DNA from: Rhizaria sp. SCN 62-66
Lineage: Eukaryota
DNA: 64,000 nt
Reading direction: 5' to 3'
Assembly (NCBI GenBank): GCA_001724265.1
Contig: MEDY01000008.1
Location: 1 to 64,000, forward strand
In this document: positions 3,880-59,900 of the stretch, piece after piece
Position numbering within the stretch: the stretch's first letter is position 1
Layout of the letters: the number at the start of each line of letters is the position of its first letter
Notes under the pieces: model-generated
What the model was told of the DNA's origin: nothing
What the model saw: only the letters and a program-made list of their open reading frames with translations
The model's database searches: none
Translations under genes and position numbers: made by a program

Positions 3880-4502
3880 TTCCAGAGGAAAGGGCGCCGC
3901 AGCAGGCTACGGAGAAGATGAACATGGCGGAGAATGGTCGGGTGAATATGGGTTATCGTCGGAGAGTGATAGGACATAGTGCATGAGGTTTTCAAGGTTT
4001 TCTATATTAAATAAAAGTAGTTACATAGATATTCATTGTATAAACATGAGTATTTTAACATTGAACGACCTAAAGAAGTATATTTTGATGTTCTTAAATT
4101 GGCTACGCATCCTTGATCGATTGGGCTGGCTGACCACGATCGCAAGCTGAGAGGTATCCGTTGGAGAAAACTACAATCTCAAAGTGGCTATTGTGACATA
4201 GTTTGATCGTCAAGCATCAAGCCACTCCACTTTATGAAATTAAACTACAAGTAGGCACTTAATTTCTTAGTAATTTGTCTCCTGAAGTCTATGAATGCTC
4301 CTAACACGACAGTTCTCACACTGCTGGCAGGACATTGTTCAACTTTGTTTCACGATATGCCCTCCGATGTAATGCAAGTATTCTTACGATTCATGATGTT
4401 ATTATGTTATGCGTATACCTCAACATTGTGGAAACCAACTGTTATCTTAGTCCCTCTTTGTTTAGTCGTTGAACATCCAACTGGAAGCGCTTATCTGCGA
4501 GA

Positions 4503-7500
4503 ATGAGTAACACTCTCTCCCAGAGTGGCGAGCGCCGTTCATGGCTGTCGTACTCGGCCGGTGGTGCACCCAGCGTGCCTCCGATTGACCTTTCCCGCGT
4601 GCCAGACTACAACGGCTTATTAAAGGTGGCTCGGCCCGTCGCACATCAGCAGATCCAGCAGCGCCCTTTATAGCAACAACAACATTAGCCCGCTTCGTTC
4701 CTACAGCACCAGCAACATCAGCCTTCGAGTCAGCTGCAGCAGCCTCAACCCGCGCAGCCGCATTGCGAGTCGCCGTGGCAACAGCAGCTGTCGGCCAATC
4801 TTTCTCTGATGGGCCTTGCGCCGAACGCACAGCAGCAACGCCAACACCACCACCAACAGCAACATCAACAGCAACAGTTTGCACAGAATCAGCACGGCCC
4901 ACACCCTGCTCCTAGCGCCACCGTCGCTGTGTCCCAATTACAGCCTTCCCAGCCTGCGCCCTTACAGCGTGTGCTAGCGCAGCCGATGCCCTCACGGCCT
5001 GTTGCTGCCCCAGCACCGCCTGCGCCGCCTCAGCCGCAGTCGAAGTGGCACGCTCACTCGCTCGCCTTCGCACCGTCTACACTGCCCCAGCTGCCGATGC
5101 CTTCGGATCACGGCAACAACGGCATTGACAATGGATTTGCGGACGGTTATAACCACGGGTACACTGCTTTTGCAAGAAATAACAATAACAACAACAGCAA
5201 CAACTATCCTATCACTAGCGGTTATGGCGGTAACGGCGGCGGCCCCGTTGGCGGCAGCGGCAGTGCGCTGTGGGGCCGCAGTAACCGGCTTGGCGTTGAC
5301 GACGAGCTGGAGCTGGCGGGGCCGCCGTCGCCGCCGCCGGCGTCCGAGGCGCTGCCGCCGCGCAGCGGGATCTGGTCGAAGCTTAACATCCCCTCTGGGG
5401 CCGAGCTGCGTGCGCAGATGCAGCAGCAACAGCAGTATCAGCAGTACCCGCAGCAGCAACAGCATCAGCAGTTGCAACAGCATTAGCAGTTGGGCCGAGA
5501 GAGAGGCATGAATGCTCTAACCGAGTCCGCCGTCGCCTCAGCTCGCAACTGGCCCGCTGAGCCTGTTGTGAACAACAATTCTACGAGCAGCCCCAATCCC
5601 AATAACAACTACCACAGGCGGGGCTCGTTCGGCAGCCACACTAACGCCACGTACAGCAGCGGTGCACCCGTGCCCGCGCGTTCCTCCGCGACTGTGGGCA
5701 CCAACACGAGCGACAGCGCGCTGGCGGCCGGCATGTTCGCGGACCACCGTCGCGCCGCCGCCGCCGCGCTCGCCGCCATCCAGCCCGGCGCGCCCCTCGC
5801 GCGGCCGCTGCCGGGGCCCGCGCGCGCCGTGCTGCCCGACGAGGTTGAGAGCGCGGCGTCGCGGCGCCGGCAGCAGGAGATGCTGACGAACCTGCTCACG
5901 GTCATGGGCGCCGCAGAGCACCCCGCAGCAGCCGAGCTCGCGGCGCTGGCCGAGCGCAGCAACGCGGCCGCGGCCGAGGCGGAGGCCGCTGTGGTGACCG
6001 CACGCGAGGCCAACAACGCGCGCGAGGGATACGGTGCACGGAAAGAATTTGGCGGCCACAACAGCAACTTTGACAACAGTAGTGGCGGCTCGTACAATGT
6101 CCGGCTCGGACTGGCCCCGCACGGCCCCGGGGCCGGCGGCGCTGCTGGCGGTGGCGGGAGCGAGAGTGCGAGGCGTCGGCTGGAGCTGCTGGAGGTGCGC
6201 GAGATGGCTCCTCCGCCGTCGGTGCTGTTACACTCATCACAGGTACGATTATCATTGCAGTGTCACACATGGACGACAAATCAGTAATTATCGTTCCGCG
6301 CTGAATTTTGATGGTTTAGTCACATACTCATTACTATTATTTTATTGATAATGCTTTCTGTTTAGGGGAGTCTCCCGTTGTTGACTCATCCCAGCGCGCT
6401 TGAACCTCTCGATGCAGAACTGCGCCGTCGCGCTGAGCAAAAGGTACGCTCCAACTTCAACAAACGCTTTGATTTCCTGACGTGAATTATCATTTAACAT
6501 GACAATCTTCTTACCTGACATTGTGTGTCGATATCTAAACATGATTTCTTTCCATCTTGCTCCGTCACAGCTCGCCGTCGCTGCGGCGAAGGAGGAACTG
6601 GCGACGCTGTCCGACTCGCTCTCACGCCTCAGCGTTACCGCCGCGGCCATGCGCGTGGACGCAGCTGCGGGCGCCGAGACGCTTTCCGCCGCCGCGGCTG
6701 CCGCGCGCGAGGACGCCCGCCGGCGCGCGCTGGCGAAGCTGTACCTGCTTGCGGCCGAAGCGGAGCAGGAGCGTGGCCACGCGGGGCGGCTGGGCACGGT
6801 GCTGGCCGCGCTGGGCGACGCCGTGCAGGGCCGCGAGCTGGGCAACGCTGTGGACGACGCGCTGGAGCGCGCGCGGCGCGAGCGCGTGGCCGAGGCTGCG
6901 GCGGAGGCACAGGAGGTGTCGGTCGCGGTTAAGGCTGTGGAGGAGGCCAACAAGGCGCGGCGCGCGCTCGAGGCGCAGCAGCAGGAGCTTAAGCACGAGG
7001 AGCAGGTCAAAGACGGCAGGCTCGACGCTCTGCAGGGACAGCTGGAGGTGCTGCAGCAGCAGTTGCAGCAACAGCACGAGCTGCAGCAGCAGCAGCTGGA
7101 GCTGCGGGCCCAACAGTTGCAGCGAAGACAGCAGCAGCATTAGCAGCAGCAGCAGCAGCAGCAGCGTCAGTCGCCGGAGCAGCGCCCACAGACTCCCCCC
7201 GGTGCGCGCTCGCCGTTCCGTCGCGTCGCCGCGCAGTCACCCTACGCTGCCGCCGCCGCGGTCGCCGCCGCCGCAGCCTCCAAGACCGAGGCCGCGGCTG
7301 CCGCGCGCTCTCTCTCACAGGCGCAGTCCCCCGGCCGCCCCGGCACCGCAGACTCCGCTGCGCGCGGCGGCCCGGGCGCGGCGACGCGCGCGCAGTCGCC
7401 TGCCTTTCGCCCCGCGAGCAAGGGGCGCAACGCGGCCTGGGCGCCCGGTCCGCCCGCGCCGCTGCCCGGCGCCAGCGCGTCAACTGCGACGGGGGGCGTC

Positions 7501-8862
7501 GGCCGCAGCCGCACACGCATGGGCCCTGACGGCGCGCCTCTGACAGCGGCCGAGGCGCTGCGCGTGGCGTCGCCGTCGGCCTACGTCCGGGCCCGCCCTG
7601 CTACCGCTGGTGCAACCGCGAGCGCTGGCGCAACCGCGAGCGCTGTAGCCGGCGGTGCGGGCGCAGCGCAGAAGCGGCGCGGTGCCGCGGAGAGCGCCGA
7701 GCTCGACCTGATGCCGTGCTATCGCCACGCGCGGCGCAAGGCGCAGGAACAACGGCGAGAGGAGGTGCAGCGCGAGCTGCGACAGGAGCGCAACAAGCGC
7801 GCGTGGCTGCAGCAGCTTGAGCAACGCATGATCGCCAAGGCCGAGAAGAACGGCCACGCGTACGGCCACGACGACGCTGACGCTCACAGCCACGCCGCTC
7901 ACAGTCACAATTACAACCACGGCCGCGGCCACGGTCACGGGTCTGTTCAGGGCAAGACGCCGTACGGCGGTGACGAGTCAGTGTATGCGGCGTATCTGCA
8001 GCGCGCGCGGGCTGAGAATGACGCTTTACAAACGCAACAGCAACAGTACCAATTCCAACATCAACAGCAGCAGCCGCAGCCGCAGTGGCCCCAGTACGGC
8101 TCGCCCGCGCGTCCCTTGCTTCCCGGTCATGGCGTCCCCACTGCAAGTCATAGCGGACCTCCTAGCCGTGTTTCAGGACTCGGCGCGCTTGACGCCAGCT
8201 TTAGCATGCTCCAAAACAGCGTTGCTAATGGTACTGCGGTGGCTCAGGGCTCCGGTCCGGGCACCGGGCCTAGCAGTGCTGAGAAAGACGAGACGATGCG
8301 CATACTCCACAGCATGTTCATGCCCCGCTCTCCACTGCGCGACGCCTCTTGGGCCGCGGCGCCTGCACAGGCGATGCGCAATAACGGTGTAGCAATGAGC
8401 GCACCAGCGAACAACGCTGCCGATGACGAGGAGTACGCTGACGACTTTGACGGGTTCTCTGCCAACTCCATGAACGACACGAACAACAGAACTAACGCCA
8501 ACCCCGTGACAGCTGCCGCTGCGTCCCCTGGACCGCGCGCCCCCATTGCGCAGCACGCGTATGGCGCCCCTACAGTTGCCCCGCGCAGCGCGTCGCCGGC
8601 CGCATACGTCGGTTCCGGCAACGACAGCAGCGTGAGCATTTCCGTCGCATCCGACGCCGCGGGCGCCGGCGCGTCCCCGCTTCGCTTCGGCGTGCCAGCA
8701 GGCGGGAGCGCTGGCACGGGAGCGGGCTCACTGGCTGTTGCGTCGGCGGGCGCGTGGCACGGGCTCGACGATGCGGGCGTGTACCGTGACGGCGACTTAA
8801 TGGGCGTGGGCCCAGCGCCGAAGAACCCTTGGTACGGCGTCGGCGTTGTGCCTTCGGGATAA
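4503..8862 (+). CDS. Uncharacterised Gln/Ala-rich coiled-coil protein (~1369 aa); exons 4503-6242, 6366-6443, 6571-8862; in-frame TAG at 4671, 4686, 5484, 7141
   Basis: ORF-track pieces 4809, 5490, 6499 and 7519 join into one frame through TAG codons in Gln runs and two phase-0 GT-AG introns (6243-6365, 6444-6570). Ends in TAA. Confidence 0.75.
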
Positions 8863-9106
8863 TCGAGTGGATCCTGGGTTACATTTAATTTTCATTAACG
8901 AAAAAAAAGAAGAAAGAAGCAATACAGACCTTTAATTCAGTATCACAAACATGGCAATGAATCAACATACAACAATAATCAAACAGGGTTTGTATTTATA
9001 CCACTTTGATAGGAAAACACATAATAACAACTATGACAAGCGACAGACAGACATTTATAGGTAAAGAGCGAGGGAGAGACTGTAACAAGCGTGGCATTGC
9101 AGGCGC

Positions 9107-11379
9107 TTACTTGCGGCTCATGTCGGCAAAAACGGAGAGGTCCTCGCCGTCGTCGACGCCGGGCCCGTGGCCGAAGTGGCCCCGGTACATGAGCTCGGCG
9201 TCAGCGCCGTCGAATCCGTCACCATCGCCGTTTTCGCCAAAGGCGGTGCTGCCAGAAAAGTCGCTCTGTCCGACGCCCGCGCCCAGCCCGGCCGCCGTGG
9301 CCGCCGCGGTCCGGCGCGCTGCGCCGTAGCTGCCGGCGCCCATTGCGCGCGCCAGGAGCGAGTCGCTGAAACCAACCTCGCCGCCTGCCGCGCCGCCCGC
9401 CGTCGCCGCGGCCGCGGCGGCCGCCGCGAGCTCGTTGGCGCGCATGGCCTTCATGGCGTCACACAGGTGCGTGAGCTTGACGAAGTCCTCGAAGGTCACG
9501 ACCTCGTGCGCGGGCTTGCCGCGGTCGCCCATGAGCACGGCGCATTCCTCGGCCGTGACGCTGAAGCCCACCTCGCGCAGCATCGCCGGCACCTCGCTCG
9601 GCGGCACGCCCTTGGGCGCGCGCAGGGCCGGCGCGGGCGCCAGTGCGTGCGGCCGCGCGGCCTCGGCGGCCCGCACGCGTGCCTGTTGGTCGAAGAAGGC
9701 GTAGATGCGCCGCAGGTCGTCGAGCCCGGCCGAGGAGAAGAGCTCGGCCAAGTCCACGAAGGGCATGTTGCGCGCCGCGCGCCGGCGGTCCTGGATCGCC
9801 GCGATCTCATTGGCCAGCACCACATCTGCGTCAGCCAGCGCCAGCGCGGGCATGGGCCGGAACAGCAGCCGAAAGGCTTGGCGGCGCTGCGAGGACGTAA
9901 GCGTCATGGCGCCCAGTTTGAGCGGCGCCGGCACGGCCGTGTTGGTCGTCAGCTCGGGCTGCGCGGCGACCTGGGCCAGGCGCAGGCGCTCGGCGAAGGG
10001 TACCACGACGCCCGCGGGCAGCTGCACCGCGTTGGCGGCCGCGGAGCCCGACAGCGGGCCCGGTGCAGACACGCCGCCCGCCGCGCCGCGCGCGCTGCCC
10101 CCGTTGCTGTTGGCGCCGCGGCCGCTGTTCTGGCCCTGCGTCCCGGCAGCCTCCGCGGTGACGGGGTTGACGGGCACGTTCATGCCCAGGTCGGCGTCTG
10201 CGCCGTCGTCGCCGGGGGAGAAGAAGTCCGCCGCGGCCATGGACACGCCGCACTTGGGCATATCGCTGACCCACTCGCCGTCGTAGACCTTTTCGCGCGC
10301 GCGGTAGTAGTAGATGCCCTGGCCCTCGCGCTTGCCGTTGAGCCACTCGCCCTCGTACACGTCCTGGTTCGCGCGCACAAGCGTGCCAAAACCGCACTGG
10401 AGGTTCTGGTGCCAATCGCCGGTGAAGACGGAGCCGTTAGCCATGTACAGCGTACCCTTGCCCTGGCGCTGGTTCTGGTGCCACACGCCCTCATAGCGCG
10501 AGCCGTCCGGGTAGTACTGCACGCCCATGCCGTCGCGCTTGCCCTCGCGCCAGTTGCCCGCGTACACCTTGCGCAGCGCCTGCGTTGCCGCCCCCGCGCC
10601 GCCGGGGCCGCCGCCGCGGCCGCCCGCGCCGGCCTTCTTGCCGCCGCCAGCAGTGCCGCCACCGGTCGCAGCCGCGGCCGCGGCGGCCGTTGCGCGCTCC
10701 GAGGCCAGGCGCTGTGCGGCGGCCGAGCCGGCGGCCGGAGCCGTCTTGTCCAGCGCCGCCGATGAAGAGGACGATGACGACGTGGCTGAGGAAAAGGAAG
10801 AGGCGGAAGGGTCCGACTTAACCCAGAGCGTGCCGTGTCCGTCGCGCATGCCGCGCTTCCACTCGCCCTCATAGGTGCCCGTGGCCCAGACCTGGACGCC
10901 AAAGCCGTGCTATTTGTTGTCCAGCCAGTCGCCCTTGTACGTCGTGCCCGTCTCCCACTTGGAGGCGCCGGCGCCCGAGGTCGAGGCGCCCGCGGAGGAA
11001 AGGGCGGACGAGTGACGCATGTCCTGGGGCGCCTTGGCCTTGACCCAGTACACAGTCTGGCAGGTGCCCGCCTTGGAGACCTGCTTGTCGCTCGCGCGCC
11101 AAGGTTTCGCAGCTGCATCAGCCTGACGTTGAGCAACGCGTTGCGGCAGAACTGGGGGGTTGCGGAAAGGCGGGGAGCGAGGGCGAGCAAGGGCGAGTAA
11201 GAGAGGAAGGGGACGTGGTCAGAAGATGAGCACCGAGATGAGTAGTGTACAAGTATGAAGTCATGGCGTGAGTATATAATGTAAACATGTCTGTTAAATA
11301 TGGTCGTACCTGCACGAAGACGGTTTAGCTCTTTGAGGGTCGCATAATGTTCCTCCTCAAGAGGAGTCTTGGAAGACAT
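9107..11379 (-). CDS. MORN3: MORN3-like MORN-repeat protein with C-terminal EF-hand-like region; exons 11379-11310 and 11151-9107; in-frame TAG at 10910-10912
   Basis: Tandem MORN repeats (YxGxWxxxxxxGxG) and a MORN3-like N-terminal segment KPWRASDKQVSKAG. Phase-1 intron 11309-11152 (GTACG...polypyrimidine CAG). Ends in TAA. Confidence 0.8.
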
Positions 11380-11997
11380 TAAGAAACTGAGAGGAGCTTG
11401 CAGCACACCTTATAGAGACGTGTGCCGTTACTTTGGGGAGAATTGGTTTAATAACACACTATTTCCGTGTATTTAAATCTTCTAACCGGGAGGATTTGTT
11501 GTTTTACGGACAGGGCAGCCCACACCAGTGTATTTTAGATCATAGCCGTTTCACTCTTGCACATACCCAGCATTTTTCGGAACCAAATGCAATCATCATC
11601 ATCACTGCTGGCTGGACATCAAAAATGATTTTCATGTCGCATATGTGACAGACAGACAAAAAAACAACAACCGTACATAACTCAAATTATAGGCACGCCT
11701 CTGCTAGAACCTTATTTGTATGCGGGTATTGTTAAATTTAACCCAACAGCTTCGGCTACTGACCTCACACTGTGTATACTTCTAGTCGTGACGAAAGTAT
11801 CGATTGCTTCGTCATGTAAAAATTTAAACATCATAATATCTAATGGAAAGGTAGTGCAGCCCAGTCTTTCTTCTAACTGCGTATATCTAGGAACAGAGAA
11901 ATAATACACAAATGAATAAAACATATGACATGTACAGTACATTAAAGCGACTTAACAGAACGCTGTGACAGCGTCGTCAAACAGGCGCACCGTCCTC

Positions 11998-13118
11998 TCA
12001 CAGCTGGCTAAACTGCGAGTCCTGATTGGTGTCGTCCTGCGCGCCGTAGCTGGTGGAGTTGCCAGCGCCGGCACCGCGGCCCTTCTTGCAGCCGTTCTTG
12101 GTAAAGGCGACCCCCGCGCAGACCAGCCCCCAGAACGCGACCCAGAAGGCGCGCTGCGGGCACGCCTCGCGGCCCACGGCGGCGCCGTGCTTCTTGACGT
12201 TGACGGCGCAGCCGACGACGATGTAGAGCGTCACGGCCAAGGCGATGATGATGAGGAAGATGCTACCGCCCGAGAGCCCGCTGCCCGTGCCCGCGGCGCC
12301 CTTGCAGCCGGAAGGGTGCTCCACCGTGAACACGGTCAGGTAGGGCGAGAAGCCAGTGCCGTCGGGCACGGAGGGCGTGCCGGCCGCGTCGGCGCACTTA
12401 ACGTAGACCTCGGTGCGGATGTTGGTGAAGATGGAGTCGACGCCGTTGGTGAAGACGAGCCGCACGCCCGCGTCGTCAGCGACGATATCGTGGATGTCCG
12501 CCTGCGTCTGCCAGATCGCGGCCGAAAGGTAGTACTTGTCCTGGGCCGTGGTGATGCACATAGAGGCATTGTCGGTCTGGCACTGATCGACCGCCGGCGC
12601 GACCCCGCAGAAATTATAATTAAAGTTGCGGGTGTTGACGCCGGTTGTCTTGACAGTATACATCTTGCCCGAAAAGGCGCTGAAGTCGTACATATCTCCT
12701 AAAGGGTGTAACAACAAGTACAGAAGCCAGTCACAAGTCAGGTAAACGTGATTTATCAGAGCCGTATTTCAGTGTTGGTTCATTTTAAGTTCGCATTAGT
12801 CGGTCTTGAAAGATCGACTGACTGACGAAGGCAGTGTTGATGTTCTCACATACCTTCTGATGTCTTGATCGTGCAGCCACCCGCCTTGTTATAGAGCACA
12901 GGATCGATATCCGTGACGGTGACGGTCGCAATGTCGTGGTTCGCACTCGCGGCGGTGGGCAAGGCGACGTCATCGCCCAGGCCAATTGCGTCACCAGTGC
13001 TACTTTTGACGGGCTCAGACACGACGGTGACGGTATCAGACAGCGACACTTCGCCAGCATATGAGACCGGTATGAGTGCAAGGAGGGCCACAAGAATGCA
13101 TCGCGTAGGTACGATCAT
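11998..13118 (-). CDS. Mannose-6-phosphate receptor homology (CD-M6PR/ATG27-like) type I membrane protein (~321 aa); exons 13118-12854 and 12698-11998
   Basis: Signal peptide, Cys-patterned luminal domain (C...YDFS...YNFCG), TM segment GLSGGSIFLIIIALAVTLYIVVG and cytosolic GREACPQRAFW. Phase-1 intron GTATGT...TTTAG. Confidence 0.75.
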
Positions 13119-13766: not shown

Positions 13767-14398
13767 ATGGCTTCGCTTCCGCCGGATCAGCCGGGATCAC
13801 CCACACCGGCTTCCGCGGAAGTCGGCGCAGCAAGCGATGCCCCTGCTGCGTCGTCATCTTCTGTCCTGGCGACTGTCACCCGCCCGCTGGCCTCGACCGC
13901 TTCGACGCTAGCATCGCTCGCGCGCGCCGCCGTCGCGACCCCAGGGGCCGTCGCCCGCAGCGCGCGCTCACTCGTCCTGCTCACCCGCCCAGTTGTTCTA
14001 TTGCTTCTGGCCCTGCGTCGCCGCGGCGCCAAATCGGCCCACACAATGACGTCTGCCGATGCAAACATCTCCAGTGCTGCCAGGGTTCGCAAGCGTGACT
14101 TGATGCGCCTTTTCGCGCACCTGTCTTGGAACTACCCCCACGCGCTCGCGGCGCTTCTATCGCGTTCCAAGACTCTCCTGCTGTCGCCCGCAGCGGTAGC
14201 CGCCGCTGGTGCCGTCACTGACGCTGCTTCCACACCGGCTGCGTCAGCTGCGACTCCCGAGGCTGAGGCGGAGAGAGAGGCGGTGCTGCTGCTGGCACCC
14301 GCACTGGCCACGCTGTTCCGCTTTCTTTGGGAGGCGCGCCCCACAGCCGCGGGCCTGACCGCGCTTGCCGCACTCGCTCCCACCACACACAACAACAA

Positions 14399-14429
<31 letters not shown>

Positions 14430-17400
14430 GGGTGCGCGCTGGCGGAGCGGCTGCGGCGAGCGCAGTAGCACGGTTGGGGCGCGGGGCAAGAGCGGCTCGT
14501 CGCCATGCTCAACAGCATGCTTCCCCGTGCGCTGCGCCCCAGCCACGCCGTCAGCAGTATCGCTGCTGATGGTAGCTTGAGCGATATAAGCCCAGAGCCC
14601 GCGTCTCCGTCCGCTCCCGAGTCTGCGCCTGCTGAGTGGCTGCGCTCGCTGCTGTCGTAGTTCGCTTTGCCCCCTGAGCTGTGCACTGCCGCCGCCGCCG
14701 CCGCCGCACCACTGCTGGCGCCCCTCAGTCTCGGCGGCGGCAGTGGCGCAGTGTCAAACGCGGCTGCTGTGAGACTGCACGTCGAGACGGCGGCTCTCAG
14801 CGGCGACGTTGTCTACGCTTGCCAGAACGCTGACACCGCAGCCGACTGCGAGCTGGGCGACAGCGCATCGACTGACAGTGTACCGAGGGACCGTGGGCCG
14901 GCTGACTGTGGGCCCTGGTGCGATTGTGAGCACCGCCGCAGCGTCACCGTCCCGCTCACGGTCACGCTCGCGTTCTCCCGCGCACAGTCCGCTGCCGCCC
15001 CGGGCTCTGCTCCTAACGCCGACCACACCAACAGCACCACGTCGAGCAGCAGTGCGCCAGGCGGAAACGCCGCGAACGCTGTGCAGACCGTGTGGGTCCC
15101 GCTCGCGCTCTCTCTCACGCTGGCTCTGCGCCCGCCGCGCGCGCTGCCTCCTCTGCGGGCCGCCGCGGCCGACGCGAGCGTTGAGTTCGAGCTTGCGCTG
15201 ACCTCGGTTGGCCGCGTCACCACAACTGCGACCACCACTGCATCTGCGACCGCGACGGCGACCGCGGGCGGCGGCGCTGGGCGCGCCACCGCGGGCGACG
15301 CGGGCTCAGCGTGTGCTGGAGCTAATGGGGCGCCGGAGCCCAGCGTTGTCATGCCCTCCAGCTCACTGCCCACGGCTGCTTCATGTTACGGTGGCGGCAG
15401 TAACGAGACTTGCGCTGGCCTGGACGCCGCCGCCGCCGCCGCCGCCGCAGTAGACCAGGGCCGTGGGCGTGACCGCCGGCGTGACCGCACGCCCGGCGCA
15501 GTGCGCGCTGTCACGCAGTCGCGCTCACGATCACGCCCACGGTCACGCTCGCCGTCGCAGACGCGGCGACTGGCGTCTGCCGCGACCGCGACTGCGGTGG
15601 CGGCTGCGGCCTTGCCCGCGCTCGCGCCCTCGGTCACCGCAGGCTCCGGCTGGGGCTTCGGCGCCATTTTCGCCCCCGTGCGCTCATTCGCCTCGGCCGC
15701 GGCCGCGCTGGTCTCCGCGGTCGCCGTGCCGTCGTTCGACGCCGAATCTAAGCCGCCACCCGCAGAAGTCAAGCCTGGTTCGACGGCCCCGCGCAGCCGC
15801 AGCAATAGCCGCACGCGCACCCGCAGCCGCAGTTGCAGCCGCGCTGTCCCACGTGAGGGGTGCGGCACGGGCGTGTGGCTAGGCCCCGTTACGCTGCTGC
15901 GGTCTGTCGAGGCCACCGCGCTTGCGACGGCGTTCCTCAGTTATCCGCAGTCCGCTACCAACTGCCACAGCAATAATGCCAGCACTGCTGGCGGCAGCGC
16001 CACCGCGCCAGCGCCTACGCCTGCGCCGAGCGCGGCTGCTGTCCTACTCTTCGCCAGCGTCACGCCGCCGCTGAGCAACGGCGACGAGGCCAGAGCCGCC
16101 GACGCCGCGGCCGCAGCGGCCGCGAGAGCGCCCCACGGGCTGCTGGTGCTTCCCCCCGCGCTGCTGCCGCTGCCGCCGCGCACCGCGCTTGCCGTCGCGC
16201 CCGCGGTCGCGCTGCCCCCCGCGCTCGCGCTCGCCGTGGCCTCAGCGCGCTCGGCGTGCCCGCCTGCGGTCCGCGCCGCCGCCGCCGCGCACGCCGCCGC
16301 CGCCGCCATCGCCGCGCTCGGCCGCGTCCCCACGGCCGCCGCCGCGCTGCTGGCCGCGCTCTCGCAGCAGGCCGGCGCGGGGACGGAGACGGAGATGGGG
16401 ACGGAGTCCGGGATCGTGACCGTGCGCTACGCAGTGCCGGTCTGCTGCCGCCGCCGCCGCCACCGCGCCGCGCCCGCGCGCACGTCGCTGCAGCTGCCGC
16501 GCGCCTTCCTCGCCGCACACTTGCCCGGCGCCAGCGCCAGCGTTGACGCTGACAGCATTGCTGACGTTGTGTCGTCATCATCGCCGCCGCTACTGCCGCT
16601 GCCCGCGGCGTACGCGCACGCCGCGCCGTACGCACTGCACCGCGCGGCGACCGCGCTGTCGCTGCTCGACGCCGCCGCGGGCGCGCAGTGGGTCAAGTCG
16701 GCCAGCGCGCGCAACGACGCCGCGCGCGCGCGCGCCGCGAAGCAGCCCGGCGGCGCGGCATCGCTGCCCGCGGCCGGCGCGGCGGTCTGGGGCGCGCCTG
16801 CGCCGACGGACATCGTGCTTGCCAGCACTCGCACTCATACATGCGCAGACACGGCTGCGGCCGCTGACGCGCCGTTAGACGTTGTGCCAGGTCTACGCGC
16901 TGACAGCGTTGTGACGTCGTTCCGCCTCTTGCCAGAAGGCTGCGACGCCGCCACTGGCCCAGGCGCTGGAGCGACTGCCAGCAGCGGCAGCTCCGCGGTG
17001 CCGGCTGCCGGCTGGGTGCCCCCGCACGGCGGCGACTGCGAGCAGGGCGGGCCCGCGACCGTGGCGCTGGGCTGGGGCGCGTGGCGTCGGCCTTGCGGCA
17101 ACAGCGACACCGGGGCCCGCGGCGGCGGCGCTGAGCGCGCGGAACAGCAGTGGCGCGAGCGGGTCGGCGTTTGTGCCACTGGCGCTGCCGTAGTCCCAAC
17201 CTCAGCCGAGTCCGCCGATTTTGCTACTGACGCCACGGCGGATGCGGAGGACACGACTGAGGAGGTCGAGGTCTGGGTCCTGCGTGGCGGCCTGACTTTA
17301 AGTTGTGACGGGCAGACTGTACGTATATCCCTGGCACAACATTCTTGGGAGTGCGGGAGTCAGAGTTCGACTCTGGCATGGTTTGCTAACAACGCTTTCA

Positions 17401-39189: not shown

Positions 39190-39210
39190 TTGGTTGGTTG
39201 GTTGGTTGGT
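39190..39210. repeat. (TTGG)n microsatellite
   Basis: About five tandem TTGG units. Confidence 0.8.
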
Positions 39211-43897: not shown

Positions 43898-46800
43898 ATG
43901 TCTACCGAGCCTCCGAGGGGTCCTTCTACTCATGACAGTGTGAGCACTCCCCAGTCAGCCCGCAGGAAGCCCACGCGTACGCACACTAACACCGTCGAGG
44001 CTCGCCCTGAGCCTCCCAGTTCTGTGCCCCCGAGTGCCAGCACAGTTGGCGACGACTCGGCGGCCCAGCGCGTTGCTGTCGGTAATGACACACAACCGCA
44101 TGCCGGTCACCGACTTGACTTCGGCGGGAATGCACCGTCTTTCTCGCAAAACGCCTACATTCCTGATGCAACTGCCACATCTTATTCTGCTGGTACCACT
44201 GCATCCGTGGCAGCCGTCGTACCCATTTTCAACGTCCACGGCAATCCTGTTGCGACCCCTCCCGCGTCACTGACCGCCAAGGCTACGACGGGCGCGCGCC
44301 CCACAGGTCCGCCTCCGGGTCGTCGCGGCGTCAAGCGCGCCCTGACTGCCGCCACTGCTTCCAGGGCCAGAGACGCCGTAGTTGCGCTCTCGCCCGTTCT
44401 GACCGCAAATGCCGCGGTGCCAGCTGTGGTTGCCACCGCGAACGTTGAGATTGAGACTCGCTCTGTGACGGACACTGCGTCGAACAGCTCAAGCAACTTT
44501 GCGTCCGCCTCTGTGTCCGCCTCTGCTTCCGCCTCTGCGTCCGCGGCCGCCGTGGAGTCGCCGGTCTCTGCCGACGACTCTGTTGCATCTGCATCTGCTT
44601 CGGCCTCTGTCCCTGACTTTTCCGCTGCTTCTGCCTCTGCCTCAGTCTCTGATTGGGCCTCCGTCCCTGACTCTACCTCTGCTGCCGCCAGCACCGCTAC
44701 TGCCGCTGCCCCTCCCTCCGTGGCTGGCAGCGTGGCTCTCGGTTCTGGCTCCAGCAGCAGCATCGGCAGTGCGGTTGGCTCCAGGCGCCCGTCACCCTAT
44801 CCGATTCCGTCCCTTTCGGTCCCCAGTCCCTCTTTCGTCTACTCAATCTCGGCCTCTGTTTCCGTCGCCGGCCCTGCAGCCGACTCTGCCTCGCTTGCGA
44901 ACGCTCTCCCTGTTGACGGCATGGAGGCTGCTGCGGCCTTTTTGATGCGTGAGGACAACAACAACGCCACCCCAGCAGCCCAAATCAACAACACCGATGC
45001 ATCTGCTCCGTCAGCCTCTCTTTCCTCCGACCTCATCGAGCAGCAGCAGCCCCACCAGCAGCCCCAACTCCAGCCGCAGCAACAACAACAGCAACAGCAG
45101 CAGCAGTAGCATCAGATGCTGCAAGCGTGGTTCAATCAGATCTCGTCTTAGACCGTGTCGCAGTACATGCTCAACGCTCTCAAGGAGCACATTAGTTTCT
45201 ATGACAGCCCGCTTAACTACCTCTACCCACCGTTTTCACCCGTTCCCACGAACGACAAGGACGCCACTGCGCTGCTTGCACCCATCGACTACCCGAACTA
45301 GAACGCTACCCCCAGCCAGCTGTCTCTGGTAGTGCCCCTGCCACCGCAGCCTAAGTCCGCGAGTGTCCCGTTGCCGCCCACGCTCTCGCCGCTGGCGCGC
45401 GTGCTTGTGCACAACTATGTGTACGCAGAGTTGGAGGTCGCCACATCTAAGGAACCTCCTTTGGGCAATCGCGATGTGCCGTCGTGGTTCCACTTCTACT
45501 TGCTGCCGCGCGCACTGCAGACGCGGCTGTGCCAAACTTTGCCGCCATTACTCCATGCCTCGGTGTGCTTTGAGGCTGCCGCGGCCACCAAAGGCGTCTA
45601 CAGCGAGGCACTGCCGGTGCTTGCGCGCCAGATCGCCGAAATCTTGCCGATGCGGCCAGTCATGTCCGTCGCCGACACCCGGCCCACTGTCGATGACCCC
45701 GACAAACAGACTTATCCGCGTGCTAGTACATGGCGTCGCGCACTCACCGGTGTCGTCGTCGATTTTCGTCGCTTCGTCCTTGAACAAACCCGGCACGCTG
45801 CTGCTGGGCTGCCGCAGCCAATGATGCTGTGCTACCGCAATCGCTCTCCAGGCATGCACGCCCCCTCCGAGCTGCGCTGCTTTGCCGGCGCGGCTGCGGG
45901 ACTAGTGGCGCGTGATGATGACGGTAACCAGATCAACGATGCCATTAACAACTACAGTCTCAACGATAACCACTTTAGCAACGATCCGGCTTCGATTAAG
46001 GCCGCTATTGCAGGGACTGCGCGCGATGCTGAACTCGCACGGCTGACACGCATCATGAAGCGAATGCATGGGCTGCATACACGCGTGTATCGTCTGCAGA
46101 CATTGTATCTTGACCTGCTCAGGTCATGTCCTGTCGACATCTTTGAGTCGCTTCCTAATAGGGACGCTGATATCACTGCGATTGCTAGGGGTGCGATCAA
46201 CGTTTGTTTGCCGACTTCTATGATGTACTTTTGTGCGCCATCAAGCCGTGAGCCGACGACGGAGGATGTACGCGCTATGATCCAGGCTGCCTCGGCCCGC
46301 CACGCGCCGCCGCGCTTCTTACCACTTCCAAGCGATTTCTCTGACGTGTCGCGCATGTCCGTCGTAAGCGTTTTCAACGTGATGGGTTGCTCGCTTGAGA
46401 AGGCGAATCAACTGCGCGATGTGATCGCTGACGCAGAGGCACGTGTCAAGGGCAGCAACGATGGACAAGAAGCCAAGCAGCGCGCTCTCACTGATCTGGG
46501 TAACCTTCGCAGTGGCGTGGGTAAGTGGCTAGGCGAGCAGAAAACCGCCTGGGAAATGCGTCTTTACATTGCCCGCTCACACACGCGACTTGACTTCGCT
46601 CACCATGTTTCGTGCACCATGATGGACCGCTCTTCGACTGCTATTGCGATCCGTCCGCTGGTGTTGGGACAGGAGCGCGTGCACTGGGCTCACGGTGTTC
46701 CCAATGCGGTCAGTGGTCTCTGTTCAAAGCTTGAGTACGTGATTTTTGAGGTACTTTTTTCGCACGACCATCCCTTATTGCTGGACGAGAATAAGGATTG

Positions 46801-48592
46801 CTTGAAGGATGACCACCCGAACATGCGCTATCTCAACGCCTTTAACGCCTGGTCTGTCTTGGCCGCCGTGGCAGACATAGCCGTGCCTGCGACAGTGACA
46901 TCACAGTGGACATCATCCCCTGAAGCCGCGCGCGCCGCGCTCCCGCAGTGGCTCACTACGCAGCGGCGCCTAGCCAGCTTGGTGCCCCCCGCTCACCTAT
47001 CACTGGCTGACCACGACTGGCGCCATGTCGTCAGCGTCCTACGACCCAATATCATTCGTTGGCTTTCTCTGCAACGCGTAAGTCATCGTCTTAATGTGCA
47101 CACAACCGACTCAGCTCTTCGCCTCTTCGATATTCTTTTGTGCTCGGCGACGACTGATGTGCTGCGGAGCCCCTTTGCTGTCGTTGACACATGTTTGGAT
47201 CTGGCTGCTAAGGTGCATGACCGCAATGTTCTCTACCCGCTTGGCCGTGCGGCGGCTGACCTTCCTTTCTGTTTAAATCTCGAGGGTCAGGTTTTCGATC
47301 GGCTCGGTCACTCACTGCTGCACGCCACATCTGCCGATTATGCTGAGCGCATGATTACGACCGTTCCTCTGACACGCTCTATGTTGCCCCCCTTTGCGTT
47401 CAAAACTTCGCTCGCCGCGCGCATCCTTTTCCAGCTGTTTGACGCTGAAGTGGCCGCGCGGATCCGCGAGCGTGTGGCTGAGACTCGCCAGGACTGGCTC
47501 GCGCGCAAGAGCCCCCAGAATGTGTTCTCTGACGTTGAATGGCTGAAGCGGATGTTTGCGAGTGAAATCCATAGGAACGTGTCCCATCTGCCTGAAGTAC
47601 CATCGCAATTGAATGACAACACAATGGGACCTGATGCATGGCTGACGAAGCTTATCCAATAGCAGTTCACCACTATACGTAAGTCACTGCAAGATGTACC
47701 AGTCTCGGACTCCGTTGGTCTTGGTCCTGCCGTCTCAGATAACGTGGAGTAGTACATCAAGGGGCTCGCCCCCGCCACACTAATCATTGACGCATTGTGG
47801 GCCCTGCAATGCGCCGTGTCTCAGCCGATGCCCACCGCGGTGGCAGCGTCGCGCGGACTTGCCCTTCATGCCATCATCCCAGCAAGCATCCAGCGTTCCG
47901 AGAGCGCCACCACTGTCGAACTCCTGCTGCCGCATGTGGTGGATTTCGTCGACGCGATGGTTGAGATGGACACAACGTCTACGTGCGAAGTTACGCCTAC
48001 TAACGCGGACATCGACGAATCAGAGCACCAGAAGACCTGGCGCATCCACCCACACTCTGTCGCGGCGGAGCTTGTGCTGCGCACTGTGGACCGGCGCGTG
48101 TTCCACGACGCCGCCTTCTTCACGCGGCTCGCAGAGTACGACGGCGCCACGCCGCTCCAGTCTCCTGCGGTGACGGCGGCTGCGGGACTGCTGGTTGCGA
48201 TGATGCGGTTGCGCATTAACGCGGTCCAGTGGTTCGCGCAGATTGTCAGTCTCTTCGGGCTCCTTCCGGCGGACGTGCTTGCGGCCCGGGACAGGATTCT
48301 GGTGACGTTTCAGTTCATTTTTTGTGGAGAGCGCATCTCGCGCCTGCTCACGGTCGCGATGAACACTGAGGGCCAGTTTTACGTCTTCGATGCCACGGAA
48401 GATCCTCTGCCCGAGGTTGTGCTTCCTCGGGTTGATCAACTTCCGAAGGATACCTTCCAGCTGTTGACGATGCCGTGGACGGGACCCTTTTGGGAGTCGA
48501 CACTCAGGGCCCCACCTCATCCGCAAGATTCACACGAGCCCACTCTTGAGAGCGAGCTCGATGACATGCATGACGGCGAGGATGGCCGGTAA
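43898..48592 (+). CDS. Uncharacterised protein (~1564 aa) with Ser/Ala-rich N-terminus and globular-looking C-terminal part; in-frame TAG at 45107, 45149, 45299, 47660, 47750
   Basis: ORFs 43898, 45332 and 47795 share a frame. The linking segments, read by hand, contain only TAG and no TAA/TGA. Ends in TAA. Confidence 0.75.
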
Positions 48593-49932: not shown

Positions 49933-52900
49933 TCATGCTGGCATTGTGTCATCATACGGGGAAGGCTGCCCGTCAAGGTCCAGCTCGCCGGCCACCATCC
50001 TGGTCACGGGGTACACAAGTCCACCAACAGACACCTTCTCCTTACGCCACCCACTCAGCTCCACGGCAGCCGCACGCGCACGCTCATGCGCCTCCACCCG
50101 CCGCTGCTGCTCGCCCCATAGCCGCGCACGTTCGCTGCCAGGCTGCCAACGCACGCGACCTGACACAGCGGCGGCCCCGTCGTCCTCGTCCGACAACACT
50201 GACGCCATCTTGGTGCGCCGCGGCGACCCGCCCTTGACGGCGGCCGCGGCATGTGCCTCCGCCTTGCGCTCCGCGGCGGACCTGCGCTGGCGGTCGATGT
50301 CGGCCCGCTGCGCCTGGTGCAGCAGCTGCATTGCACGCGCCGCGTCCGCGCCCGCCTCGGTCTCGGCCACAGCCCCGCCCGCAGGCGCACCGGCGACCGC
50401 CGCGGCCGCCGCAGCCGCGGCCACAGCGGCGGGCGGAGCGCGGGCGAACACCTCGGACGTCGTGCCGACCGTGCTGTAGGGCCCCGCGGCCAGAGCAGCG
50501 GCGCCCTGAACGGGGCCGCGGTCGACGATGCCCGCGGCAGCAGTGCCCACTGACACTGCGCGTGCACGGGGGCGTCGCGCCGCGTCCGCCGCGGCCACAG
50601 AGTAGAAGCCGGGGCCCGGCGTGTCGGGCAGAGCGGGGGCGAGAGTGCCTGCGAGCGTGGCCGTCGTGAGCAGGGGTCGGTTGAGCCCGTCGCCAGTCGT
50701 CACAGTGACGCCCATCGAGTAGTGCAAATTGCTGCTGGGGCCGAACGCGCCGTCACTGCCGCCCGCGCCACCGCCCAGTCCGCCGCCGCCGCGCTCTCCG
50801 GCGCCACGCGCGTGCGCCGACGGCCGCGACACGCAGTTGCCAGACTCGCCGGCGCGCGGGATCACCCCGCCCAGCCCGCGGCCCGCCGCTGCGGCCGCCG
50901 TGGCGCTGGCGTGCGCGCCCACGCCCGCGCTGTCGCGGCCGTAGGGGTCGTAGCTGCCAGGCCCGAGCTGCGCGGCTGAGAGCTCGTCGCGGCGCGAGCG
51001 CGGCATCGACGTCGTCGCCATCGCGGCCGAGTCGGCCCACGCGCGCGAGCCGCGGCCCGCCGTGGGGCCCGACGCCGCCATGTCCACGAGACACACAGAA
51101 CGCACCGGCGGCGCTGGTGCAAGCGAGAAGGCCTCGGGCGCGAACACGGTCGCCAGGGACGGCAACGTCGGCGCGTACGAGCCCGGTCCGCGCGCGGTGT
51201 CGACCTGCCGCTGCACCACGTGCGCCATCGTCATCACGCCGGCCGACACGCCGGGCCCGCCGCTGGAGCGCAGCGAGTGGTGCGTGGCCGAGCTCGCGGT
51301 GAGGCTACCGGCGCCGCCCATTGCCACGCGCGCGCCCGCCGTGACCGAGGCCGGCGTGGGGAGAACGCCGAGCATCGTGAAGCGCGACCGGGCGCGCGCG
51401 CGGGTCAGCGCCGACGACTGCCAACCCACCATCGCCGCAGTTGCGGTCGCCTGCACCTGCGCCTGCGCCTGAGCCTGGGACTGCGTCTGGCTCTGCGACG
51501 ATGCGAGCGCGCCACTGAGCAGCGCGCTGGACGATGACAGCGAGGCTGACGCAGTGGCCGCGCGGGGCACGCCGGAGCTGTTGTCTGCGCCTGCGCCTGC
51601 GCCGGTGCGCCGAGGACTCGCGCTGCCGGCGCGTGCGCGGGAACGGGAACGGGAGCGTGAACGTGAGCGTGGCCTGCTGTCGGCGGGCGAGCTTGCATCC
51701 GCAGCGGTCGAGGCGCTGCTGGGATCGTGCGATGCCGTTGGTTGGCTCACCTGCGGCGGCAACACCTGCGGCATCGACATTGGAGGCGGCAGTGGACACG
51801 CAAAAGCAATGCCCGTGCCGGTGCGTGGGCGCTGCCACCGCAGCACGCCGAGCGGGCGCGTGCCGCTGGATCCCGAGTACGCGGCAATCCCGTGCATCTG
51901 CTGCTGCGGCCGCTCCTGCTGCTGCAGCTGCTGCTGCGCGGCCGACGTCGCCATGCCGCGGCCCAGCGCGGCAAACGACTGCGATGTTACGTCGCCCGCG
52001 CGCTCGAGGAAGTGGTCGTGCGCGCCCGCCATGGCCGCGAAACGCTCTGCAACGGGAAACGACACGCCGGGCCGCGACGACGCCGCGGCGGCCACGGCGC
52101 TCACCGACACGCCCGCGTCAGCGCCGCCTGCAGACGGGGATGACAGCGGCAGCGTCGACCGCAGCGGCAGCCTCCCTTGCAGCACAACGCCCGCGTGCGC
52201 GCCGCCGCCTTCGCTGCTGCCGTGCTGCGCGTGCGCCTGCGCGTGCGCCTGCGGCTGCGCGAGCCCCGCCATGCCGCTCTCGGCGGAGGCTGCGACGGCG
52301 GCGCGCGCGCGCTCGCGCTCTGCCCTCTGCGCGACGCCCGCGCTGCTGCCGGCGATCTGCGCGTAATGCTACGCGGCCAGCGTCAGCTGCAGCTTCGCGC
52401 CCAGCGCCGAGAAGGCCACAGCGCGTGCGCGTGCCAGCGCCGGCGCGGCGGCACGGCACAGCGCGGCGTCAGCGCGCGCGAACCCCAGCCCGCCGCCGTC
52501 GTCCAGGTCCATGCCCGCGCCGGCGCCGGCGCCGTTGGTGGCCGCGGGGAAGAGCGCCGACGACGCCGATGACACAGCAGCGGACGCGGCCAGCGCGGCC
52601 ATCGCGGGGGTCCGATCCGCGAGCCCCTCGGCGGCCGCGGCGGAGCCGTGCGGCGCGTGCTCGTGCGTGTGCGAGCGGTTGCGCCGGCGGCAGTGGCCGC
52701 AGCGGTCGACCTGCGCCGCGCCGCCCGCGCCCTCAGTACCAGTCTCGGCCCGCGCCTCGGCCTCGATAGCAGCCGCGGTGGCCGCCGCGCTCAGGGGCGG
52801 CTGCGGCGCCGGCGCCACGCAGCCGTCCGCGGCCGCGACAATGCCCTCGCGCTGGCGCCGCAGCTGCCGGCGCACGCGGCGGCGCTCGGCGCGGTCGCGT

Positions 52901-56900: not shown

Positions 56901-59900
56901 TGCCGAACGCATGGCGCGCAACGAAGCGAGGTTGCGGGCGCTGGCCCAGATGCCTGCGCGCAACACGACTGGCCGTTCCACCGGTCATCAAGCGCACCCT
57001 GACAATGGCGATGTTTCCAGCCCGAAGAACGTTGAGTCTGGCCAGGATAGCGCCAGCGGTGACGGTGCGCAGGGTGTCCTCGAGCATGAGCGCAACGACA
57101 TGCTTGAACACAGTCTCGACGGCGGCCTGGGCCTTGACCCCGAGTCCGAGCATGATGAGCAGCCTGTGCATGCCAATGACAAACAAGATATTGTTGCGTC
57201 TGCGATGGAACTCGAGGCTGCTTCCACTGCTGATGTCGCGATCAACACACGCACTCAGCCCGGGTCTGATGGCCGTCAACAGAGTGGCTCTGCTCAGGAC
57301 GATGATCGCGAGCTCGATATGTCAGCTCTCGCGTCTGAGCTCAACTTCACAGTGCACAACGCGACCGCGACACAGCTTTCGCCCATGCACGAGCAAAGCG
57401 ATGATAGCAACGATCACAAGAACAACAGCAATATTACTAACAAGAGCAACACGAGCATGAACCTTGTTTATCCTAAGAACGATGACGCTGTCGATGATGG
57501 TACCGACATGGCCACACCGAAGCCAAATCTTACCCCGGCTCCGCGGCCTGAGCCTTCGCCGACCGCAGCTGCCCGTCGCTACCACGGTGACCGCGACGAC
57601 GGTGGGGATGACGGCGACGACCGCGCCGAGCTGTCGTTTTCCGAGAGCCCGCTTGCGCACTCCGCTTTGCCGAATGCGCACACCCAGGCGAAGAAGTCCA
57701 CCCCGGCGTCTCCCGCGTCCGCTTCTACCGCAGCAGCTGCTCGCCGTGGTGGCGGCCACGCGACCCCTGCGCCTGCGACAGCATCCGGCGAACCGCGCCC
57801 CGCCGGCCGCTCGCGCACCCCTGCGACTCGCGTCCCTCGCGCTGATCCCACTGCGACCGCAGCCGCGCTAAACGAAGGCTCGCACTCGCCGTCCCGCGCT
57901 GCCGGCCTCGCGCGCCCCGCCTCCTGGACTCGCACTCCGGCACCTGCAGCTGATGGCGCTCCCGCATCCACCTCAGCGGCTGCTGCCGCTACCGCCGCTG
58001 CTGCTGCTGCTGCGGCAGCGGCGGCCCTGGCTGCGACCGGCAACGGCCGTGAACAGCGCCGGTCCGCCGCCGCGGCGCTGGTGGCGCGCTTGCGCCGCGA
58101 CCAGAACCAGCAGCTGCACCAGCAGGAGCAAGCTGCGGCCGCCGAAACCGCGGCCGCGGCGGAGGCCCAGGCCAAAGCCAAGGCGGAGGCTGCGGAGGCC
58201 GTCGTGGACCTGAGCCCCGCGTCGCTGCTCTCGTCGAAGTACCTTCCCCAAGACCCCCCGACCGCGCCGCCGACGACGGCAACGCCGCATCAGCAGGCCA
58301 AGGGCCAGACCAGGCCGCGCACCGACACCCGCGCCCCGCCCGCGTCTGCAGGAGCAACTGCCCCCCAGCAGCTGCAGCGCCGTGGCCCGCGCAGACCGTC
58401 CATCAACCCCGCATCCGCCCACGCACAGCACAACACGAGCGCTGTCAACACCACAGCGAACGCTGCCGACGACAAGCCCGAGCGAGAGTAGCCACAAGAG
58501 CGTCCAGAGGATGAGGACGACCCCGAGGTTCTCGCCGCCGCGCTGCACGTGGCGGCCCTGCACCGGCAGCGCTCGCTGCTGCTGTTCCATGGCTGGCGCC
58601 CGTGGCAGCGCCTGATCGAGGCCCGCCGCGCCTCGGCCGCGCGCGCTGTGGCCCACGCCGCCGCGGTGACCCTCCCGCGCCGCCGCGCCGCCGCCTTTGC
58701 GCAGTGGCGCGCCGCGGCCGCGCAGTCTGCGGCCGAGGGGCGCGAGTTTGACTCCGCGGCCGCCGCGCTGGCCTCGGCCGCCGCCGCCCGCGGCGCGCTG
58801 CAGCGCGGCGTTGCGGCGCTCAAGGCACATCTGACTGAGATGAAGGCGGCGCGCGCTAAGGCTGACGCGTTGTGGGCGCGGAACACCAAGGGCCGCGTAC
58901 TGGGCGAGTGGTGGCTCGCGGCGCGCGCGCGCGGCGAGGCCGTGGTCGCCAAGATCGAGAGCGTGCGGCCGCGCGCGGAGGCCATGGCCAAGGCGGGCGC
59001 GGCCAGGCGGGCGTGGGCGCGACTCAAGGCGGGCGTTGCGGCGGCCAAGGCCGAGCGCGCGCGCGAGCAGGAGCGCGAGCGGATGCGGCAGCGGGCCGCG
59101 GAGGTGCTGCGCGAACTCAACGGCGCCGGCGACGGTGACGGCGCTGCTGCTGGCAAGGCGAGCAGCAACAGCAGCGTCGGCGCGCTGTGGGCGAGGGCGC
59201 GTGCGAGCGCGGGGGACTATCTTAGCACGGCCGCTCTTGATGCTGACGAAGACAGCACTGCCGGACGCATTGTGTTCACGCTCGACTCAGCGCTCACCGC
59301 TGCCGGTAGCGCGAGTGCCGGGGGTCACGGACAGCACGTGACTGCGACGGCGGCAGCGGCTGAGGCTGCCGCGGCTGATGGCATGGCTAGCCGGATTGCC
59401 GCGCTGGCAGAGGCCGCCGACCGCGAGTTCGACGCCATCGCGGCGCAAGTGATGGGAAAGCCCGCGGCATAGTCTCGCTTGAACGCTAATGTCAGCGGTA
59501 ACCCAGCGACAGCGTCCAAGAGCAGTGGTGCGACCTCGGCGACCAAGGATGACGGCAATGGAGCACGCAAAACGAAACCTGCTGCGACCGCTGGCAGGCG
59601 TGCTGTTGGCGGGGCTGCGACAACAAAACCCACCGCGGCTGAAGAGCAGCAGCAGCAGGAGCAGGCGCGTGCACACTTGAAGATGTCGCGCGGTCGCAAC
59701 GCCGCTGGGGCATCCAACTCGACTTCAACACGCGACTCAGCAGCGCTTTCGTCAGCATTTGCCACTGCTGATCTTGGACTCGCGCTTTCACAGCCTTTCG
59801 ACCTCTCAGGAGGTGTTGGCGGTGCGGCTCGAGACGCCCATGGAGCCGCTACAGAGGAGGTGGATGACGAAGGCGCAACGCGGGCTATGCAATCCGACAT

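Follow-up and report, generated by a model that had tools for sequence, protein, structure and literature searches.

A 64-kb window of DNA (64,000 nucleotides, positions 1 to 64,000 of contig MEDY01000008.1, deposited as Rhizaria sp. SCN 62-66) holds on its minus strand a MORN3-like gene with a TAG codon in its reading frame. Judged from the sequence, this gene is most likely intact, and its TAG is most likely a sense codon. Six other long genes of the window contain 14 further in-frame TAGs (one to five per gene, in frames with only TAA and TGA as stops), and the MORN TAG is no isolated lesion. We consider it very probable that the nuclear code used here reads TAG as sense, likeliest as glutamine, and keeps TAA and TGA as stops, with the MORN3-like gene intact; the genome-wide validity of this pattern is something we infer from the window. 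Provided that TAG is decoded as sense, glutamine is the probable residue.

The TAG codon of the MORN3-like gene

The codon occupies positions 10912-10910 of the minus strand and is codon 104 of a 704-codon gene whose spliced frame contains no other stop. The minus-strand letters around it, TAC AAG GGC GAC TGG CTG GAC AAC AAA TAG CAC GGC TTT GGC GTC CAG, are translated as YKGDWLDNK-TAG-HGFGVQVWATGTYEGEWKRGMRDGHG. A Pfam search with the TAG-containing frame finds MORN (PF02493) in 5 stretches with an E-value of 1.1e-31, and the repeats WREGKRDG, WHQNQRQG and WHQNLQCGFG, with which an earlier note on this DNA had compared the site, all lie in the frame of the TAG. The central claim of that note, a TAG inside a conserved MORN repeat, is borne out by the sequence, by the Pfam match and by the alignment of orthologues described below. 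The gene consists of the following features.

11310..11379, minus strand: exon 1, with ATG at 11379-11377, 23 codons plus one base (sequence; spliced contig X7 record 31)
11152..11309, minus strand: intron of 158 nt, GT..AG, its 3' end rich in pyrimidines (absent in X7 record 31, present in X4 record 8)
9110..11151, minus strand: exon 2, with a conserved N-terminal motif, MORN repeats plus a low-complexity insert, and a helical C-terminal domain
10910..10912, minus strand: in-frame TAG, codon 104 of the gene and residue 81 in exon-2 numbering (sequence, translation, orthologue alignment)
10817..10957, minus strand: first MORN repeat pair, four beta-strands, residues 66-112 in exon-2 numbering (AlphaFold2 model, 10-residue blocks with a mean pLDDT, the predicted local distance difference test score, of 86-94)
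10847..10849, minus strand: ATG inside MORN repeat 2 (the M of KRGMRDG), start of the existing standard-code call P0001 (580 amino acids, aa)
9107..9109, minus strand: terminator TAA, next base G

Four public runs were mapped as contigs on positions 4400-11500. The splice is shown by a 261-nt contig from a cDNA library (X7 record 31), which equals 11431-11310 joined to 11151-11013, exactly as predicted, and a DNA-like contig from another study (X4 record 8) retains the intron. The intron borders (GT at 11309-11308, AG at 11153-11152) are seen in the sequence, and removal of the 158 nt keeps the ATG at 11379 in frame with the TAG. The N-terminal exon, which the earlier note had described as intact, is thereby confirmed.

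Eight orthologues were aligned to the MORN protein (P0002, P0004, P0006, P0007, P0014, P0021, P0027 and L002, the last a translated cDNA-like contig). All eight cross the TAG without a gap, one residue per codon, so that an intron or skipped element around the codon, a candidate that we considered and rejected, is excluded, in line with the earlier remark that the site leaves no room for one. The closest orthologue, P0002, is 69-70% identical to the MORN protein; since its identity is 50/76 aligned positions upstream of the TAG and 396/580 downstream, constraint at the protein level is equal on both sides of the codon. Upstream of the TAG, the orthologues have in common the motif W-x(7)-K-x-G-x-C-x(3)-YW (W..D....K.G.C...YW), which is followed by the first half of MORN repeat 1.

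An AlphaFold2 model of the MORN protein, built with nine sequences, has an overall mean pLDDT of 59, a low value that is due to long disordered inserts. In exon-2 numbering, strands are modelled at residues 66-77, 80-89, 92-99 and 102-112, with paired beta-strands also in 193-306. The TAG residue, 81, opens the second strand of the hairpin 66-77 / 80-89, where pLDDT is 86-90. A start at the annotated ATG 10849 would remove three of the four strands of residues 66-112 plus the N-terminal motif.

The best matches of the protein among solved structures are MORN1 (E 2.6e-45), FAP207 (2.1e-31) and MORN3 (7e-26), which makes the label MORN3-like, proposed in the earlier note, a reasonable one, although MORN1 outscores MORN3 among these PDB matches and both length and C-terminal domain differ from those of MORN3. 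The atlas cluster of orthologue P0006 is named 'MORN repeat-containing protein 3'. Like proteins of the MORN3/FAP207 type (8j07_c1, 9fqr_MS, 7jts_m) and the apicomplexan MORN1 (6t69_A), the protein of the window contains an array of 23-residue MORN repeats, but it is longer than the MORN3/FAP207 type (704 aa versus about 240) and has two extra elements, a low-complexity insert of 90 residues that separates repeats 2 and 3, and a helical C-terminal domain. In that domain, Pfam matches EF-hands in the orthologues P0006 and P0014 and calls none in the window's own protein.

The TAG-containing sequence is also found outside the assembly. A metagenome contig, L001, carries the same 703-codon MORN frame with the TAG included. 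A 253-nt, DNA-like contig that stems from another study, X4 record 7, covers 10801-11053 including the TAG and differs only at 10981, while X4 record 1 (4510-5269), with its sole difference at 4624, keeps two of the TAGs of another gene, at 4671 and 4686. Three further runs contain all sampled words, although these runs may themselves be the source of the window. Contigs from a polyA library are identical to the body of the MORN gene at 9747-10042 and 10115-10444; this RNA library may contain DNA.

In-frame TAGs and terminators across the window

The other 14 in-frame TAGs are listed below, each with its gene and the evidence for it.

4671..4673, plus strand: gene 4473-6284, in QQRPL-x-QQQH (within X4 record 1)
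4686..4688, plus strand: gene 4473-6284, in QQQH-x-PASFLQHQ (within X4 record 1)
5484..5486, plus strand: gene 4473-6284, in QQLQQH-x-QLG (frame test)
7141..7143, plus strand: gene 6481-8859, in the CAG run QQQH-x-QQQQQQQ (frame test)
14466..14468, plus strand: gene 13767-20060 (frame test)
14658..14660, plus strand: gene 13767-20060; the existing call P0128 (1770 aa) begins only after it (frame test)
45107..45109, plus strand: gene 43880-48589, at the end of a poly-Q run (frame test)
45149..45151, plus strand: gene 43880-48589 (frame test)
45299..45301, plus strand: gene 43880-48589 (frame test)
47660..47662, plus strand: gene 43880-48589; the existing call P0121 ends here (frame test; homologue P0123 on both sides)
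47750..47752, plus strand: gene 43880-48589; the existing call P0122 starts after it (frame test)
52369..52371, minus strand: gene 49936-53442 (frame test)
58489..58491, plus strand: gene 53818-60099 (frame test)
59470..59472, plus strand: gene 53818-60099; followed by 209 open codons to a TAA (frame test)

Long open frames arise by chance in GC-rich DNA, and we therefore used a frame-restricted test. Each stop triplet was scored by codon log-odds in 100-codon flanks, a pass meaning that on both sides its own frame outscored the other five. The test is passed by 14 of 678 TAGs, 3 of 841 TAAs and 1 of 1774 TGAs. All but one of the passing TAGs (13/14) belong to the 15 in-frame sites listed here and above, while the four passing TAA and TGA triplets score 0.01-0.07 bits per codon and represent non-coding DNA. 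The codon-score thresholds used at first were too insensitive in low-complexity genes, with only 1-4 TAGs passing. A cruder control, in which each stop was read as sense in turn and long open reading frames were summed, was set aside as uninformative because reading through TGA makes the GC-rich non-coding frames fuse on a massive scale.

The terminators of 18 recognisable genes are TAA in 12 and TGA in 6, with TAG in none, a sample that is small enough that TAG may occasionally be used as a stop. The TAA at 24278, which forms part of the 5' splice site of the Mre11 intron, was left out of this count. Apparent TAG ends at 650, 1641, 55536 and 63973 were rejected as belonging to alternative or antisense frames or to the window edge. 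TAA is thus the commonest terminator (12/18) despite coding DNA of about 70% GC. In frame, TAG is rare, with 15 occurrences in about 15,250 codons (roughly 1 per 1000).

For the gene at 43880-48589, a HMMER search with 1160 of its residues retrieves three proteins, namely its own fragments P0121 (spanning query residues 75-850) and P0122 (907-1160) and the homologue P0123, a single chain of 1481 aa. P0123 is colinear with the gene on both sides of the TAGs, and the TAG columns fall in stretches that cannot be aligned to it. The corresponding search for homologues of gene 13767-20060 found only the window's own fragment, P0128. When Pfam was run on 29 small open reading frames from low-GC stretches, a family was assigned to one of them (ATG27 / mannose-6-phosphate receptor), a frame that contains no TAG, and no further domain-level TAG emerged. 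As the sole TAG of the window within a domain recognised by Pfam, the MORN TAG is its best domain-level evidence for sense decoding, as the earlier note had judged it to be.

The public gene calls are interrupted at every TAG and evidently follow the standard code. P0001, P0121, P0122 and P0128 are fragments in consequence, and existing predictions for this organism are wrong wherever TAG occurs.

The residue probably specified by UAG and the rival explanations

Glutamine is favoured by the surroundings of the TAGs. A naive-Bayes context model (+/-3 residues), trained on the roughly 15,700 residues of the window and applied to the 15 TAG contexts, scores glutamine at 27.2 nats, followed by histidine at 10.2, leucine at 3.6 and lysine at 0.2; glutamate falls outside the eight best-scoring residues at all four neighbourhood sizes tried. 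In validation, sets of 15 true glutamine sites were called Q in 182/200 trials, while 15-site sets of E, K, L, Y and H were miscalled Q in 0, 0, 3, 1 and 3 of 200, figures that are somewhat optimistic in that the same proteins served for training and test. Of the TAGs, five lie inside CAG/CAA runs, and three of the five read CAT-TAG against a local pattern of CAT-CAG. The codons after TAG resemble those after glutamine codons: C follows 10 of the 15 TAGs, a frequency that exceeds the 0.26 seen for codons overall (p = 0.0012) and is not significantly above the 0.47 seen after CAG/CAA (p = 0.10).

The MORN site itself is less specific. At the same position of 1235 MORN repeats in 128 stored proteins, the commonest residues are R (487) and K (212), with glutamine third (86), ahead of M (73) and P (69), and L (36) and E (24) are among the rarer ones, and in the 48 repeats of the orthologues they are R (28), K (11), Q (6) and E (1). 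To this extent the site is compatible with glutamine, as the earlier note had suggested. The orthologous column, the one conserved TAG column of the window that can be aligned and the one in which that note had proposed to read the residue, is crossed gap-free by all the orthologues but contains K in seven of them and E in the closest one, P0002, and never Q. The MORN TAG is thus taken to show sense decoding, while by itself it identifies no amino acid.

Several observations weigh against the interpretation of TAG as a glutamine codon, or against sense decoding as such, in addition to the optimistic validation and the small sample of terminators mentioned above. A profile-based call from the MORN site, with its column of K and E, would favour K or R. 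TAGs that arose from CAG by C-to-T changes in tolerant low-complexity sequence could look glutamine-like whatever they encode, and C as the favoured next base is at the same time the classic context of leaky termination. As to the decoding machinery, the 64-kb window contains no tRNA gene, no eRF1 gene and no match to Rfam. At the RNA level, no RNA contig covers the MORN TAG, the spliced contig X7 ending at 11013, 101 nt short of it; over 10799-11500 the depth of the polyA-RNA run X6 is zero; and no convincing RNA contig covers any in-frame TAG site in the runs mapped.

The possibility that TAG is sense but specifies glutamate, lysine, leucine or tyrosine, each of them a residue to which UAG or UAR has been reassigned in other organisms, is one that we regard as unlikely. 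In its favour are the K and E of the orthologous MORN column, the fact that GAG or AAG becomes TAG by one G-to-T or A-to-T change, and the TAGs at 58489 and 47750, which come after glutamate codons in acidic or polar contexts. There is also precedent in UAG as leucine, which passages of PMC5304391 describe for Rhizaria sp. exLh and passages of PMC11687900 for some phyllopharyngean ciliates. The context model, however, places lysine and leucine far below glutamine and leaves glutamate out of its best eight, glutamate (24/1235) and leucine (36/1235) are rarer than glutamine (86/1235) at the MORN position, and the codons after TAG are like those after glutamine codons.

Quite improbable in our estimation, yet still a live rival, is an ambiguous code in which eRF1 continues to recognise UAG and near-cognate or suppressor tRNAs read through it efficiently in favourable contexts with C at +4. 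What keeps a context-dependent, incompletely reassigned UAG in contention is that the terminators take a purine as the next base (14/18, with C in only 1/18), whereas the in-frame TAGs take C (10/15, with CA after 8/15). C-containing contexts of the tobacco mosaic virus type (CAR-YYA) are known to promote readthrough, and the rarity of TAG in frame would also fit. Against it, none of the 18 genes terminates in TAG, and C is not significantly more frequent after TAG than after ordinary glutamine codons. Moreover, with up to five TAGs per gene, the full-length product would be vanishingly rare unless decoding were efficient.

A standard code, with the MORN gene as a young pseudogene or truncated allele that has suffered a recent nonsense mutation, is strongly disfavoured and in our view extremely improbable. 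A single base change would turn AAG, GAG or CAG into TAG, and the existing call P0001 merely begins at the next ATG. That ATG, however, lies within repeat 2 and after other ATGs, an implausible place for a start. Nor does a decaying gene account for 14 other in-frame TAGs in six genes that have no in-frame TAA or TGA, for conservation that is equal on both sides of the TAG, for a gene that is spliced and whose body appears in polyA-library contigs, or for a TAG that is fixed in contigs of at least two studies.

Correction at the RNA level, by U-to-C editing to CAG, or an artefact of assembly or sequencing is scarcely credible. The codon is without RNA contig cover, which leaves room for editing, but L001 and X4 record 7 have the same letters as the window, and all sampled words recur in three further runs. 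The four mapped runs have no reported base differences at the TAG sites, RNA cover there not being established. Nuclear U-to-C editing of such a kind is not known to occur. Selenocysteine is dismissed as having the wrong codon, and pyrrolysine has no known eukaryotic precedent.

Under sense decoding, UAG would specify residue 104 of an intact MORN3-like protein of 704 residues. By analogy with the documented cases, a tRNA carrying the anticodon CUA, in all probability a descendant of tRNA-Gln, would insert the residue, and eRF1 would no longer recognise UAG while keeping UAA.

Known UAG codes, the organism and its other genes

Passages of Panek et al. 2017 (PMC5304391) describe UAG as glutamine in Iotanema spirale (Fornicata), an anaerobic gut flagellate represented by transcriptome data, with glutamine at 22/28 hyperconserved columns and with 104 UAA and 15 UGA as stops. 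The same passages give UAG as leucine in Rhizaria sp. exLh, where only UAG is found in frame and the stops are 56 UAA and 15 UGA, and they present these two cases as the first documentation, in 2017, of a reassignment of UAG with UAA and UGA both kept. The relevant part of McGowan et al. 2024 (PMC11687900) reports UAG as glutamine, with UAA as the preferred stop, in the phyllopharyngean ciliates Hartmannula sinica and Trochilia petrani, and UAG as leucine in an uncultivated lineage.

When compared to Iotanema as described in that source, the window has in common that only UAG appears in frame, that UAA is the main terminator (12 TAA and 6 TGA in the window) and that UAG is never a terminator. 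It differs in having very GC-rich DNA (about 70% in coding stretches), in its occurrence in wastewater metagenomes, and in that glutamine is deduced from context only. With Hartmannula and Trochilia, as far as their published description goes, it shares the reassignment of UAG alone and the retention of UAA as a stop, but the window, at 61% GC and on a multi-gene contig of 161,484 bases, is not ciliate-like. Ciliate genomes are AT-rich, and phyllopharyngeans carry gene-sized chromosomes. Rhizaria sp. exLh, according to the passages concerned, likewise has only UAG in frame; there, however, UAG falls on conserved leucines, whereas the contexts in the window are polar and Q-rich and leucine scores far below glutamine. 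In NCBI table 6 (UAR as glutamine), which is used by many ciliates, hexamitin diplomonads and others, UAA also encodes glutamine and UGA is the sole stop. UAG is probably glutamine both in these classical codes and in the window, but in the latter TAA ends 12/18 genes and is absent from coding frames.

The code of the window is thus most likely the UAG-to-glutamine type of Iotanema in a new host lineage. Whether it also represents an independent, so far unrecognised reassignment of UAG alone (to glutamine, with UAA and UGA as stops) in a eukaryote from wastewater reactors that is very GC-rich, not a ciliate and probably flagellated is a question on which we find the case evenly balanced. Changes to the nuclear code are rare, and those in which UAG changes while UAA stays a stop are rarer still. 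If true, the case would be one of very few nuclear ones in which UAG and UAA are uncoupled, possibly the first in its major lineage, and would supply an independent data point on how recognition of UAG by eRF1 is separated from that of UAA. With TAG at about 1 per 1000 codons, it would also be informative as to whether a codon is first lost under GC pressure and only then captured. For binning, annotation and proteomics of such sludge eukaryotes, the right code table is needed.

As to the organism, the window is 61% GC, with coding stretches at about 70%, Ala- and Gln-rich proteins and few introns, and its sequence occurs in metagenomes from bioreactors, wastewater, activated sludge and fuel cells. 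Atlas searches with the MORN orthologue give Cercozoa, Ciliophora and Haptophyta, as leads only. An SNW search returned only 4 matches, and the one MORN orthologue from a chlorarachniophyte does not place the organism of the window. For two proteins, the neighbours in the atlas loosely suggest stramenopiles or Cercozoa; among the former, bicosoecids and similar flagellates that feed on bacteria and have very GC-rich DNA would presumably fit the organism. A full-text search of the literature found no description of such an organism, which is no proof that none exists.

A flagellated organism is hinted at by the MORN3/FAP207-like gene together with the protein of 49936-53442 (minus strand), in which several P-G-P-G-S/F-Y motifs resemble, by eye, the sperm-tail PG-rich (STPGR) repeats of ciliary proteins; Pfam has no match to this protein at E <= 0.001. 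At 36331-38673 (plus strand), an unbroken frame of 781 codons encodes a C2 / inositol-polyphosphate 5-phosphatase (Exo_endo_phos2, E 2.3e-59), whose nearest atlas cluster consists mostly of diatoms (Bacillariophyta), a weak lead for stramenopile affinity.

Among the other genes, a small gene at 12001-12768 (minus strand), whose terminator is TGA, encodes an ATG27 / mannose-6-phosphate-receptor-like membrane protein (Pfam ATG27, E 7.7e-12). It directly precedes the MORN gene and is also present on contig L001. Mre11 (20292-26956, minus strand) is split into two frames, with Metallophos in 24281-26956 and Mre11_DNA_bind in 20292-24239, as a result of a short intron, with the TAA at 24278 forming part of its 5' site. 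It has very long Ala-rich low-complexity inserts and about 2200 codons in total. Over some 5 kb, at 38700-43900, the GC content is lower (0.48-0.52) and Pfam recognises no gene; the only strongly codon-biased open reading frame there, at 40374-41105 (minus strand), ends in TAA and belongs to no known family. Finally, near the beginning of the window, we observe two tandem paralogous small genes at 301-633 and 1172-1624 (both plus strand), each ending in TAA. Their N-termini, MRSLI.VLL..VLFALALSTALAQR, are nearly identical and resemble a signal peptide. Repeats rich in Gly, His and Trp (GHGHW, GGGGHW) come next, and from these features the products look like secreted histidine-rich proteins.

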